From an uncultured Syntrophaceae bacterium (GTDB lineage Bacteria; Desulfobacterota; Syntrophia; Syntrophales; UBA2210): a DNA stretch of 64,000 nt. Within the stretch, counting starts at the first letter, position 1. Each line of letters begins with the position of its first letter. Of this stretch, positions 40,293 through 42,972 are shown one piece after another. The translations under genes were made by a program, and so were the position numbers. Location of the stretch: contig CAZSYH010000004.1 in NCBI GenBank assembly GCA_964610735.1, positions 5,299 through 69,298 on the forward strand, read 5' to 3'. Below the pieces are notes generated by a model. It was not told where the DNA came from and did no database searches. It worked only from the letters and a program-made list of their open reading frames with translations.

Positions 40293-41121
40293 AAATTTTC
40301 TTCTTTATGTCTGTCTTTTCTTTCCTATCCATGTGCCACCAGACTGGATTAATTGCCTCCGTACAGGAATCATTAATACGCACAGCCGCCTGTCCCTGGC
40401 CTATGGGAACAATTTTATCGGAGGCGGCCTGTTCTATAAAAAAAATCGCGGCAAGGGGGACATGATATTGGATATTCCAGATCTGTTCCGATCCATGCCA
40501 GAGGTGATCGCTCCATGTGGGAACGGGATGAGCAAGGTATCTGTTTTGATCATCCAGCACGACAAGGGACTGATCGTCACTCAAGGCACGCCAGTGTGGT
40601 GGAAGGCGGCGAGACAGGGTGGATTTCCCCGCGCCTCCCGGACCGGCAAGCAACACCCCGCTCCCGTTTCGCTCTGCGAGAGCCCCATGCAGAATAAGCC
40701 CGCCGGAATCGAACGATCTTAAATATATGCCGTAAAGGGCAGTCCACATTTTTATAATGTCAAGTTCATGCCTGCGGGAATGTCCGATCTCACAAACGAT
40801 ATCCGGTATTCCCTTATGTGTCCAGAGTCTGAGAGCCCCGAAATCCACGCCACTCCACCCGTCAGTTGGAAGATCTGTCTTTATCCTCGAGAATATGAGG
40901 GGATTCAGCTCATTACCTTCGTTTTTCTTCCAACGCCCCTGAACAAAGAACATCCCGATACTGCCGCGGCTCATATCCCGATCGTCAGGATTAAGTCCGA
41001 TAATCGTGGCGAATTTTTCTACCCATGACCTTGTGTCCGGAGTGGCCATAAAGGACCAGCAGGCGCCGTTGCCCAGTTTCAGAAGGAACTGTGTGTCGGA
41101 TGTTTTATCTTTCAAACTCAA
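40195..41121 (-). CDS. HprK-related P-loop protein (ScmC-like) of the RiPP cassette
   Basis: 'LHGALAERNGSGVLLAGPGGAGKSTLSRRL...ALSDDQSLV' matches the HPr kinase C-terminal catalytic pattern H-G..v...G.GvLl.G.sG.GKS...L...sDD. TTG start at 41121, 12 nt after the precursor stop. Confidence 0.65.
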   Translation of the reverse strand: MSLKDKTSDTQFLLKLGNGACWSFMATPDTRSWVEKFATIIGLNPDDRDMSRGSIGMFFVQGRWKKNEGNELNPLIFSRIKTDLPTDGWSGVDFGALRLWTHKGIPDIVCEIGHSRRHELDIIKMWTALYGIYLRSFDSGGLILHGALAERNGSGVLLAGPGGAGKSTLSRRLPPHWRALSDDQSLVVLDDQNRYLAHPVPTWSDHLWHGSEQIWNIQYHVPLAAIFFIEQAASDKIVPIGQGQAAVRINDSCTEAINPVWWHMDRKEKTDIKKKIFDNASNMARTVPAYILRNSLNGCFWDEMEKVL

Positions 41122-41133
41122 TTTGACCTTGTT

Positions 41134-41358
41134 TTATGCTGCCAGACTTCCAAGGCTGCAACCTCCTGAGGCAGATGCCCCTGCCCGGCATCTCCCTGTG
41201 GCGGATGACCCATTATTGCAATTTAATGGGGCGGGTCCTCCGACAGTCGATCCGAGGCTGCATTGATTGGTAGCGTAAACTCCCGATTTACAATTGTTTT
41301 TCCCCTCGGCCCTGTCTTCCATGGCGAAATCTATCAGGAGAGGCTTCTCATAATTCAT
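41134..41358 (-). CDS. RiPP precursor peptide, copy 1 (74 aa, 5 Cys)
   Basis: ATG at 41358 is preceded by AAGGAGGAAATGCC (a strong SD). Sequence: MNYEKPLLIDFAMEDRAEGKNNCKSGVYATNQCSLGSTVGGPAPLNCNNGSSATGRCRAGASASGGCSLGSLAA. It lies inside the 126-aa ORF call. Confidence 0.75.
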   Translation of the reverse strand: MNYEKPLLIDFAMEDRAEGKNNCKSGVYATNQCSLGSTVGGPAPLNCNNGSSATGRCRAGASASGGCSLGSLAA

Positions 41359-41567
41359 GGCATTTCCTCCTTTTTTAAACGTGTCTCCGGGAAAAGCCCC
41401 TTGCTGGTTGCCTCCTGGCAGTACCAGAAGGGAGCCCAGAGATTTTTGTTCAGGTAGTAATTCTGAGCTATACAGTTTCCCAGACAGATACTCTTTAAAA
41501 GACATTTCCCGCAAATACCCTCGAGACGATCAGGGAGACCCTCGCGAAGTTCCCGGAGTATGGGAGA
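41359..41567 (-). pseudogene. Duplicated 3' fragment of the radical SAM/SPASM gene (no start codon); it supplies the SD and upstream context for precursor copy 1
   Basis: Encodes in frame 'SPILRELREGLPDRLEGICGKCLLKSICLGNC...KKEEMP*'. It differs from 41840-42048 at 4 positions by hand count. Confidence 0.8.
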
Positions 41568-41611
41568 TGTGCGTAGGATGTTTTATCTTTCAAACTCAAA
41601 CTGACCTTGTT

Positions 41612-41839
41612 TCATGTTGCCAGACTTCCAAGGCTGCAACCTCTTGAGGCAGATGCTCCTGCCTGGCATTTACCTGCGGCGGCTGACCCATTCTTGCAAT
41701 TTCCTGGAACGGGCCCTCCTCCCACATCCGATCCAAGGCTGCATTTATTAGCGGCGGAAGCCCCCGATTTACAGTTGTTTTTCCCCTCGGCCCTGTCTTC
41801 CATGGCGAAATCTATCAGGAGAGGCTTCTCATAATTCAT
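41612..41839 (-). CDS. RiPP precursor peptide, copy 2 (75 aa, 5 Cys)
   Basis: The ATG (41839-41837) overlaps the rSAM stop codon as ATGA, and the same SD precedes it. Sequence: MNYEKPLLIDFAMEDRAEGKNNCKSGASAANKCSLGSDVGGGPVPGNCKNGSAAAGKCQAGASASRGCSLGSLAT. Confidence 0.8.
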   Translation of the reverse strand: MNYEKPLLIDFAMEDRAEGKNNCKSGASAANKCSLGSDVGGGPVPGNCKNGSAAAGKCQAGASASRGCSLGSLAT

Positions 41840-42972
41840 GGCATTTCCTCCTTTTTTAAACGTGTCTCCGGGAAAAGCCCCTTGCTGGTTGCCTCCTGGC
41901 AGTACCAGAAGGGAGCCCAGAGATTTTTGTTCAGGTAGTAATTCTGAGCTATACAGTTTCCCAGACAGATGCTCTTTAAAAGACATTTCCCGCAAATACC
42001 CTCGAGGCGGGCAGGGAGACCCTCGCGAAGTTCCCGGAGTATGGGAGAATTGTTCCAGACATCGTCGAGGCGATCAATATCCGCATGCCCGAAGACAAGC
42101 TCGGGCACCGTCTCACCGATGCCACACAGAGAATATGAGCCATCGGCAAGGACACCGAGAATGCCAAAAATGCCGCACGTGTTACATCCGGCGCCGTTAT
42201 TTCCAAACATTTTTCCCAGAGGACGGAAGGCAGGCGGATGATCAAAGGTGAGCGGCAGGCTTGTGGAAACGGAGAGGGTATTTTCAACCCATTGCCCGAG
42301 TTCCACAAGTTCCTCTATGCCCAGAGTTTCCCCTGCCTCGTGCATCTGTTTTCCTCTTGCCACGGGTTGCAGAACATTAAATTTGACGGAACCTGCCCCC
42401 ACTGATTCCGCCAGGCGCACAACCGCCTCGATCTCGTCTCTGTTACAACGCGCCACCGTCATGATGATCTGGGGTTTAATGCCGGCATTTACGAGATTAT
42501 TGATTCCTTCAATAGTTTTTTCAAAGCATCCGGAAACGCCGCGCATCCACTCGTGGATTTTCGCGTCCGCGGCATCGAGGCTCACCGCCACGAAAGGATC
42601 GTTGCATGACACCATCATTTGAGAGAGTTCGCTGGTGCACAAAAGACCGTTGGTCTCCACAACCAGCCTGAGCTTTCCGGCGCGAACCTCCTCCAGGATT
42701 TCACGAATTTGCGGGTGGAGTAAAGGCTCGCCGCCGGTCAGCTTGACCGTTGACAACCCCAGCGGTCTGGCCTGCTCTACTATGGACTTGAAAAGGTTCA
42801 GGGAAAGGCTGGGATGAGTATGAGTATCATCCTGATATTTCGGGGCAAGCCAGCAATGACGGCAGCGAAGATTGCACCCCTCCGTCAGGTAAAAGTAAAT
42901 CTGATTCAGGGAAAATTTTCGTTCTTCTTTTATGACTGTCATTTTATTCACTGTCCACCGTCCACTGTCCAC
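41836..42972 (-). CDS. Radical SAM/SPASM peptide maturase 2 (PqqE-like; ScmE/ScmF-like)
   Basis: 'LTEGCNLRCRHCW' (CX3CX2C). SPASM Cys clusters 'GAGCNTCG...SLCG' and 'CGKCLLKSICLGNC'. The first 10 codons of the ORF call come from the heptamer array, so ATG 42942 is the more likely start. Confidence 0.85.
   Translation of the reverse strand: MDSGRWTVNKMTVIKEERKFSLNQIYFYLTEGCNLRCRHCWLAPKYQDDTHTHPSLSLNLFKSIVEQARPLGLSTVKLTGGEPLLHPQIREILEEVRAGKLRLVVETNGLLCTSELSQMMVSCNDPFVAVSLDAADAKIHEWMRGVSGCFEKTIEGINNLVNAGIKPQIIMTVARCNRDEIEAVVRLAESVGAGSVKFNVLQPVARGKQMHEAGETLGIEELVELGQWVENTLSVSTSLPLTFDHPPAFRPLGKMFGNNGAGCNTCGIFGILGVLADGSYSLCGIGETVPELVFGHADIDRLDDVWNNSPILRELREGLPARLEGICGKCLLKSICLGNCIAQNYYLNKNLWAPFWYCQEATSKGLFPETRLKKEEMP

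Follow-up and report, generated by a model that had tools for sequence, protein, structure and literature searches.

A precursor duplication in a SynChlorMet radical SAM peptide cassette, probably old and homogenized in its 5' part by gene conversion

INTRODUCTION

Several clusters for peptides that are made ribosomally and then modified posttranslationally (RiPPs), among them those of the NHLP/Nif11 families, the prochlorosins, and the cyanobactin cassettes, encode multiple precursors that have a common leader and differing cores and are expected to be served by one enzyme set (PMC2887384; PMC13500794). Gene conversion within biosynthetic gene clusters (BGCs) has been described as common, mainly for modular polyketide synthase (PKS) and nonribosomal peptide synthetase (NRPS) clusters (PMC13500794). 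Here, we present an analysis of a tandem duplication in a SynChlorMet (SCM) radical S-adenosylmethionine (radical SAM) RiPP cassette of an uncultured Syntrophaceae bacterium. The cassette lies on the minus strand of a 64,000-nt stretch of contig CAZSYH010000004.1 (hereafter, the window, to which all coordinates refer), and each of the two repeat units carries a gene for a ScmA-like precursor, ScmA-1 and ScmA-2. The original prediction, made from the sequence alone, described a recent duplication with a conserved leader and a hypervariable core and offered two explanations, i.e., diversifying selection on the core or gene conversion homogenizing the flanks. We found that the repeat is a two-segment mosaic with a single breakpoint and that the two sides of the breakpoint have incongruent genealogies. 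Based on these comparisons, we suggest, with a probability of roughly 0.68, that the duplication is old and arose in place and that its 5' part was later homogenized by gene conversion.

The SCM cassette was defined in silico by the families TIGR04248 to TIGR04252. To our knowledge, no SCM product has been characterized experimentally, and a search of the available literature for SynChlorMet/Scm genes turned up no publication about it. In the window, the gene order on the minus strand is ScmD, ScmE, ScmF, ScmA-2, remnants of ScmC and ScmF (ScmC' and ScmF'), ScmA-1, ScmC, a peptidase, and a nucleotidyltransferase. ScmC, ScmD, ScmE, and ScmF score far above the curated cutoffs; a small Cys/Gly/Ser-rich open reading frame (ORF) lies between ScmF and ScmC here too; and a peptidase gene and an NTP_transf_5 gene are present as in other cassettes. 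The locus differs from the SCM model in that the precursors have 74 to 75 aa compared with 49 model positions, contain five C-x-x-G-x-S-A-like motifs, and have sub-cutoff ScmA scores, and in that there are two precursor genes together with enzyme-gene remnants, while all close relatives have one precursor gene.

As in multi-precursor RiPP clusters, the two precursors are paralogs with one leader (0 differences in 63 nt) and differing cores, and a distant SCM-like locus with three tandem precursors (L034; see below) follows the same logic; by comparison, only two copies are present here. Because the nucleotide-level identity extends 209 nt upstream into a dead enzyme-gene fragment, leader identity in this case reflects recombination history and not leader-specific purifying selection. 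A long identical tract, a sharp edge, incongruent genealogies, and dead DNA kept near-identical to its live paralog are features shared with the concerted evolution of tandem bacterial paralogs. However, the reviewed cases of BGC gene conversion concern mainly PKS/NRPS modules, whereas here the repeat consists of a RiPP precursor and enzyme fragments. Two radical SAM/SPASM enzymes, a PqqD-family protein, and regularly spaced core Cys are reminiscent of sactipeptide and ranthipeptide systems, and by analogy to these, the chemistry would probably consist of Cys-derived thioether cross-links. Among solved structures, ScmF matches SkfB and PqqE, and the top-scoring match is cytosylglucuronate decarboxylase. 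In contrast to those systems, ScmE and ScmF score below the cutoffs of every characterized maturase model (PapB, StsB, AlbA, and SkfB), and the HprK-like ScmC and the NTP_transf_5 protein are without counterpart there. The cassette type, shared-leader multi-copy precursors, and BGC gene conversion are already known; what is specific to this locus is a clean, outgroup-controlled case in which an identical leader beside a diverged core is best read as the outcome of a conversion tract whose extent includes 209 nt of dead enzyme-gene DNA.

ANATOMY OF THE REPEAT

Local alignment delimits a unit 1 at 41090 to 41567 (478 nt) and a unit 2 at 41568 to 42048 (481 nt), i.e., the same boundaries as originally predicted, with 444 of 481 columns identical, 34 mismatches, and one 3-nt indel; Tandem Repeats Finder reports a period of 481 and 2.0 copies. 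The promoter-proximal unit 2 contains the live 3' end of ScmF, ScmA-2, and a dead 5' remnant of ScmC (ScmC'), while unit 1 contains the dead tail of ScmF (ScmF'), ScmA-1, and the live 5' end of ScmC. This anatomy confirms that the duplicated segment extends from the 3' end of the second radical SAM gene across a precursor gene into the 5' end of the HprK-like gene and that the copies are in tandem.

The ScmF' remnant (41355 to 41567) comprises the last 70 ScmF codons and the stop codon; it lacks an in-frame start, but the ScmF frame remains open, with 1 amino acid changed compared with live ScmF. Based on outgroup polarization, ScmF' retains the ancestral GAT CGT, while live ScmF has the derived GCC CGC. 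The ScmC' remnant (41568 to 41599) has a TTG start and, on translation, indeed reads LSLKDKTSYAH; compared with live ScmC and the outgroups, it has derived changes. An out-of-frame ORF of 34 codons (41495 to 41599, minus strand) opens at the ScmC' start at 41599, crosses the unit boundary into ScmF', and ends at 41495. The dead ScmC' start retains TTG and an upstream AAGG, and translation of the 34-codon ORF could still give a junk peptide ahead of ScmA-1.

ScmA-2 (41612 to 41839) has 75 aa and ScmA-1 (41134 to 41358) has 74 aa. For both, the sole NCBIfam match is ScmA (TIGR04252), with scores of 24.8 bits for ScmA-2 and 22.7 bits for ScmA-1, both under the cutoff of 35. The leader motif (K/N)YEKPxL and the C-x-x-G-x-S-A repeats are common to both precursors and to 32 representative clusters of relatives, and both small ORFs are best called divergent ScmA-like precursors. 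The ATG of ScmA-2 overlaps the ScmF stop codon as ATGA, and AGGAGG is present upstream of the start; ScmA-1 is without translational coupling to ScmF and is preceded by the 34-codon ORF. That the small ORFs are real genes is supported not only by the family match, the AGGAGG, and the ATGA overlap but also by orthologs at the same position in every related locus and by a dN/dS of ~0.2 between the cores of ScmA-2 and its ortholog in the related locus L011 (see below). The two precursors have identical leaders, and the core of ScmA-1 has 14 replacements and one Gly deletion, with five of five Cys kept. Thus, the predicted number of replacements and the conservation of the Cys stand; the predicted count of 7 silent changes does not, as we counted 8 sense codons with silent changes and, in addition, a stop codon change (TAA/TGA).

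DISTRIBUTION OF DIFFERENCES BETWEEN THE UNITS

In transcription orientation, the ScmF-derived tail has mismatches at 4 of 209 positions and precursor codons 1 to 21 at 0 of 63, as had been counted by hand, followed by 26 of 162 plus one codon indel from codon 22 to the stop, 2 of 12 in the intergenic stretch, and 2 of 32 in the ScmC 5' piece; counted over sense codons, the core has 25 differences in 159 nt plus one indel. Accordingly, the 5' 272 nt (ScmF tail and codons 1 to 21) contain 4 differences, while the 3' 206 aligned nt contain 30 (Fisher P = 2e-8). The divergence 3' of codon 22 is 11 to 16%, the non-coding ScmC' remnant included. The maximum chi-square breakpoint lies at column 274, in codon 22, and the first Cys codon follows 2 nt later (permutation P = 4e-4 for the breakpoint); identity is unbroken over as many as 196 nt (permutation P = 5e-5). 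The tract that we suggest was homogenized therefore comprises columns 1 to 274, corresponding to 41775 to 42048 in unit 2 (perfect run, 41775 to 41970) and 41294 to 41567 in unit 1 (identical run, 41294 to 41489).

Stop codon, intergenic stretch, and ScmC' together differ at 5 of 47 positions, significantly more than the 4 of 272 upstream (Fisher P = 0.0045) and no different from the core (P = 0.48). Because the 3' flank is as diverged as the core, unlike the upstream tract, there is one breakpoint and not two, and the pattern is a two-segment mosaic. Divergence within the unit is, as predicted, sharply heterogeneous, and the significant single-breakpoint and run-length permutation tests exclude uniform divergence. 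However, the description of a diverged core between nearly identical flanks holds for the upstream flank only, given the 5 of 47 differences downstream.

AGE AND GENEALOGY OF THE TWO SEGMENTS

The related loci are those of the Deltaproteobacteria metagenome-assembled genome (MAG) AB_69_Bin_260 (L011/L021) and of uncultured Syntrophaceae (L012 to L020), together with L022, L023, and L027 to L033. In all of these (L011 to L023 and L027 to L033), one ScmA lies between ScmF and ScmC with the same synteny; hence, the comparison of copy number in relatives shows that the duplication is specific to this lineage, with a single ScmA in every related locus examined. Relatives of ScmA form 9 clusters in a set of 5.8 billion proteins and 32 representative clusters by profile search, and scans of genomes and of metagenomes with the ScmA alignment gave 4 loci each, all single-copy, so that the sample of close relatives is small.

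Between the two copies, the core has a dN of 0.151, a dS of 0.289 (10 synonymous differences in 41.7 sites), and a dN/dS of 0.52 (Nei-Gojobori), and this synonymous difference of 10 in 41.7 sites exceeds the 4 in 209 of the dead ScmF' remnant (P = 4e-6). For comparison, the locus-wide dS of six cassette genes is 0.13 to 0.30 versus L011 and 0.32 to 0.53 versus L012. Because the dS of the cores falls within this cassette-wide range (0.19 for ScmA-1 and 0.22 for ScmA-2 to L011; 0.34 and 0.33, respectively, to L012), both cores look native. Consequently, the predicted recent origin of the duplication fits the 5' 272 nt but not the core, for which the dS of 0.29 is as large as that to the nearest single-copy species (0.13 to 0.30). 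On a rough estimate from these values, the separation of the cores would be of about the same age as the split between this lineage and that of L011, while the 5' 272 nt appear to coalesce several-fold more recently.

The low divergence of the 5' tract is not due to constraint because the tract includes the dead ScmF' and because the same DNA diverges between species: the ScmF tail differs from that of L011 at 19 to 21 of 209 positions and the leader at 9 of 63, compared with 13 of 162 in the ScmA-2 core. Nor is the 5' tract equally invariant between species in the four outgroups used. The family alignment has an invariant MNYEKPxLIDF, a conserved AEG..NC, and five C-x-x-G-[AS]-[SG]-[AV]-like motifs; among orthologs, mean pairwise identity is 96% for residues 1 to 11, 65% for residues 12 to 22, and 74% for the core. 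Because only residues 1 to 11 are highly conserved between species, the nucleotide-identical leader probably reflects shared recent ancestry and not leader-specific constraint. Between species, the pattern does not appear to be the classic one of a conserved leader and a hypervariable core, as residues 12 to 22 are less conserved than the core.

With L011 taken as the sister lineage and the outgroup being L012, L022, or L023, we counted informative sites per segment. In tail plus leader, 9 to 10 informative sites group ScmA-1 with ScmA-2 versus 0 to 1 for the alternatives. In the core, the same grouping has 0 to 1 sites, while ScmA-2 groups with L011 at 2 to 7 and ScmA-1 with L011 at 1 to 2; for core sites shared by the two copies, the Poisson probability of at most 1 with 5.7 expected is 0.023. 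Genealogies 5' and 3' of the breakpoint are thus incongruent.

ASYMMETRY OF THE TWO PRECURSORS

ScmA-2 is the copy closest to the orthologs. With L011 used for polarization, ScmA-1 has 19 derived core columns (two of which are gap columns) and ScmA-2 has 7, and dN to L011 is 0.151 for ScmA-1 versus 0.043 for ScmA-2 at equal dS. Three-point branch estimates give ω of ~1 for ScmA-1, which is not significantly above 1, and ~0.14 for ScmA-2; amino acid change in ScmA-1 is ~6 times faster than in ScmA-2 and mostly at family-variable positions. All five Cys motifs persist in ScmA-1, and among its 15 changed columns, only 2 are invariant in the other eight sequences, namely, S28Y and one Gly of the GGG spacer (hypergeometric P(≤2) = 0.0026). 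We suggest that ScmA-1 is probably functional, i.e., a constrained but diverging paralog; positive selection on ScmA-1 is possible.

THE TANDEM ARRANGEMENT IN INDEPENDENT CONTIGS

The possibility that the repeat is an assembly artifact had been raised with the prediction, and we checked it in contigs of other samples, which were found by exact-protein look-ups. Contigs L002, L008, L024, L025, and L026, from five other samples, are 100% identical across the unit junction. In L002 (JGI 3300028161), unique ScmF is joined to core 2, the junction, and then unit-1-specific variants, while in L008 (3300028162), L024 (3300028191), and L025 (ENA ERZ27248939), the shared tract is followed by core 2, the junction, ScmF', ScmA-1, and ScmC with sequence beyond it; L026 (3300029693) begins within core 2 and then follows the same path as L008. 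L010 (ENA ERZ27248953) is without the junction and begins 76 nt upstream of ScmA-1. L002, L008, L010, L024, and L025 each have one end inside the 196-nt identical run, as expected of short-read graphs. The ScmC'|ScmF' junction is a novel sequence, and an allele bubble cannot create such a junction; therefore, the tandem is real and the duplication is not an artifact of one assembly.

In one further assembly (L001/L003/L009; JGI 3300028168, contig Ga0268277_1000142, 58.5 kb), a single copy runs from live ScmF through core 1 to ScmC, and the contig is otherwise 100% identical to the window. This single copy is either an assembly collapse through the 196-nt run or a real homologous deletion through the identical tract.

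ORIGIN OF THE MOSAIC

To explain these observations, we suggest that illegitimate recombination copied a segment of ~480 nt, from inside ScmF to codon 11 of ScmC, which would have left two precursor genes separated by two dead pieces, the ScmC' head and the ScmF' tail. Later, at least one non-reciprocal recombination event between the repeats would have overwritten the 5' 272 nt, i.e., the ScmF tail, the ribosome-binding site, and codons 1 to 21. That the tract stops at the first Cys codon could be due to selection acting against conversion events that would remove the second core. The mosaic and the genealogies favor gene conversion homogenizing the 5' flank, one of the two originally proposed explanations, over selection.

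Some observations weigh against this scenario. The counts are small, as the core contributes 10 synonymous differences and the 47-nt remnant contributes 5 differences, and the dating is rough with a wide error. Of the four differences in the tract, three are derived in live ScmF and not in the dead remnant, which poorly fits a simple history in which the live gene converts the dead copy, which then decays; the clustered GCC CGC change may represent a single later event or a tract edge, and polarization of the four residual differences is ambiguous with respect to donor and recipient. Moreover, if the duplication predates the split from L011, L011 lost the downstream copy and yet kept an A2-like core, and easy deletion via the long 5' homology would not leave L011 with such a core. 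Lastly, the evidence for the tandem comes from short-read metagenome assemblies, of which one contig, L001, is single-copy.

Rapid divergence of the core after a duplication that is recent throughout, by diversifying (positive) selection or targeted hypermutation, would fit the breakpoint at the start of the Cys-motif region, the ω of ~1 on the ScmA-1 branch versus ~0.14 for ScmA-2, and the location of most ScmA-1 replacements at family-variable positions. However, the core dN/dS between the copies is 0.52 at a dS of 0.29, and synonymous sites (10 of 41.7) and the dead ScmC' remnant (5 of 47) are as diverged as replacement sites and far above the upstream tract, arguing against the predicted diversifying selection; the suggested estimate of dN/dS for the core did not give a value above 1 with a low dS. 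In addition, the ScmA-1 and ScmA-2 cores have no derived states in common, the spectrum is ordinary (22 transitions and 12 transversions, with no adenine bias), and the window contains no third, template-like copy, the search for which gave only chance matches inside glycosyltransferase and asparagine synthase. We consider this history to be very improbable. A diversity-generating retroelement was also rejected based on the lack of adenine bias and of a third copy or template in the window, although no search was made for a reverse-transcriptase gene.

The single-breakpoint mosaic and the incongruent genealogies are equally predicted by a recent duplication in which the 3' half of one copy was replaced from a diverged strain or species, or by an unequal crossover between strains with different core alleles, and a single-copy configuration with only the ScmA-1 core exists in one assembly (L001). 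Yet the ScmA-1 core is no further than the ScmA-2 core from three of four outgroup loci, whether at synonymous or at all sites, so that neither of the two seems foreign. Searches of 5.8 billion clusters, GTDB genomes, and JGI metagenomes gave no A1-like core elsewhere; the downstream flank of unit 1 is ortholog-like (2 of 46 differences to L011), while the unit 2 remnant is derived, as for in-place decay; and L001 is 100% identical outside the repeat, which fits collapse or deletion within the same strain and not a donor lineage. Import of an allele therefore appears unlikely to us. That the tandem is an assembly artifact, for example two strain alleles stitched in series at a locus with only one precursor, would agree with the single-copy and otherwise identical 58.5-kb contig L001 and with the short-read metagenomic origin of all assemblies, in which contigs break within the repeat. 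We assign only a minimal probability to this explanation in view of the novel ScmC'|ScmF' junction, which is identical in at least five other samples from different assembly sources (JGI and ENA), of L002, which joins ScmF, core 2, the junction, and unit-1 variants, of L008, L024, and L025, which join core 2, the junction, core 1, and ScmC and beyond, and of remnants that have substitutions of their own.

The identical leaders imply that ScmD, as a PqqD-type recognition element, and ScmE/ScmF should recognize and process both precursors and that the peptidase would remove the leader; if both copies are expressed, one cassette should thus yield two different five-Cys products. We also considered the more far-reaching idea, which we regard as doubtful, that the repeat is a standing recombination device. 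Its 272-nt tract would owe its homogeneity to repeated conversion, halted by selection at the leader/core boundary, so that leaders stay matched to one enzyme set while cores diverge, and would also mediate the reversible loss and gain of the second precursor in a population polymorphic for two-product cells and one-product cells of the L001 type, with only the fast-evolving ScmA-1 core.

Altogether, the locus provides a dated, outgroup-controlled example of a radical SAM RiPP cassette gaining a second substrate. It illustrates that a nucleotide-identical leader beside a diverged core can be a recombination footprint and not a sign of selection on the core, which calls for caution with genome-mining heuristics. 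The two natural substrate variants, with one leader and five conserved Cys motifs, could as a pair guide heterologous expression for the SCM system. Overall, we view it as a clean but fairly ordinary case of a cluster gaining a second product that opens no new question beyond this.

THE CASSETTE AND ITS NEIGHBORHOOD

All cassette genes are on the minus strand, and the locus is an SCM radical SAM RiPP cassette. ScmD (44155 to 44472) is a PqqD-family protein and the presumed leader-binding element (TIGR04248, 125.4 bits with a cutoff of 100; PF05402 also matches). The radical SAM/SPASM proteins ScmE (43039 to 44148; TIGR04250, 622.4 bits) and ScmF (41836 to 42942; TIGR04251, 615.8 bits) exceed cutoffs of 400 each. 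The ScmF ORF reaches back to a GTG at 42972; its start is likely the ATG at 42942, and this 368-aa form has an exact match in public assemblies. For the form with the GTG start at 42972, an exact protein look-up gave no match; the ATG-42942 form is the recorded one.

ScmC (40195 to 41121) is a distantly HprK-like P-loop protein (TIGR04249, 285.9 bits with a cutoff of 125) with a weak match to HprK in the PDB (E = 0.027); PF27840 ScmC is recorded for the same ScmC protein in public assemblies. The S24/S26-like peptidase (39543 to 40292), which is assigned by domain matches and has 216 aa as called in other assemblies, is a candidate leader peptidase. The ScmC homologs P0151, P0152, and P0155 are fused to a Peptidase_S24 domain, and the occurrence of this fused domain in some ScmC homologs supports that the peptidase is an integral part of the cassette. 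The NTP_transf_5 family protein (38438 to 39556) is assigned by family match and synteny; the cassettes of L011, L012, L031, and L036/L037 show the same synteny for this gene, while in the Syntrophales locus L034/L035 it is found at a more downstream position.

From 35603 to 45730 and beyond, the SCM cassette is located inside an exopolysaccharide/PEP-CTERM-type locus, with an XrtA-associated ATPase, an LMW-PTP, an HD_5 protein, a Wza-like Poly_export protein, and a Wzz/GNVR kinase as neighbors. A neighborhood of this type is also seen at L011, L012, and L036/L037 and is kept out to a Nitrospirae MAG, and this conservation suggests that the peptide is functionally linked to envelope/exopolysaccharide biology.

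At the ScmE/ScmF boundary (42945 to 43053, minus strand), there is a tandem array of ~15 copies of the heptamers AGTGAAC/AGTGAAT/AGTGGAC, which is identical in all assemblies seen. The ScmE stop codon lies within the array, and the ScmF ATG lies just after it. L011 has 9.6 copies of AGTGGAC (3825 to 3891) that are read through as a 20-aa ScmE extension, while L012 has no array. Because 7 is not a multiple of 3, slippage of the heptamers would change the ScmE C-terminus or the ScmE-ScmF spacing.

A scan of 36000 to 48000 against Rfam at E ≤ 1 gave no match. Promoter-like sites numbered 15 versus 10.1 ± 3.2 in shuffles and terminator-like sites 5 versus 8.4 ± 2.9; inside the repeat units, the sole site from these scans is a promoter-like match on the plus strand, the non-coding strand, at 41267 to 41294.

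VARIATION IN RELATED LOCI

Among the ScmA orthologs of the window, L011, L012, and L027, synonymous divergence in the core is 0.2 to 0.37 versus up to 1.2 to 1.3 in the leader between more distant species, based on small numbers. RNA folding of each precursor region (z = −0.26 and −1.16) gave no structure explaining the low core dS or the conserved tract.

In P0010, a 102-aa ScmA relative, the core holds the exact internal repeat GNCMLGTSAATCRLGSIV twice, i.e., an intragenic duplication of a two-motif module. With this repeated module, the ScmA family also grows by duplication within the precursor.

In the Nitrospirae MAG GCA_011040195.1 (L037, 5073 to 5987), the stretch between ScmA and full-length ScmC contains an 80-aa ORF similar to the ScmC N-terminus and, after it, a toxin-antitoxin-like pair formed by an 83-aa ORF and a TumE-family gene. 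This is a second, independent rearrangement that left a ScmC 5' fragment at the ScmA-ScmC boundary.

The Syntrophales locus L034 (ENA ERZ27256505/GCA_035506495.1), in which the cassette has extra radical SAM genes, contains three tandem Cys-rich precursor paralogs of ~135 to 148 aa downstream of ScmC (6951 to 8550). These have the common leader KYE-P-L-LSGE-TA-GA-C-TGSHA and divergent cores; because column identity averages ~72% in the nucleotide alignment of all three, they are old duplicates.

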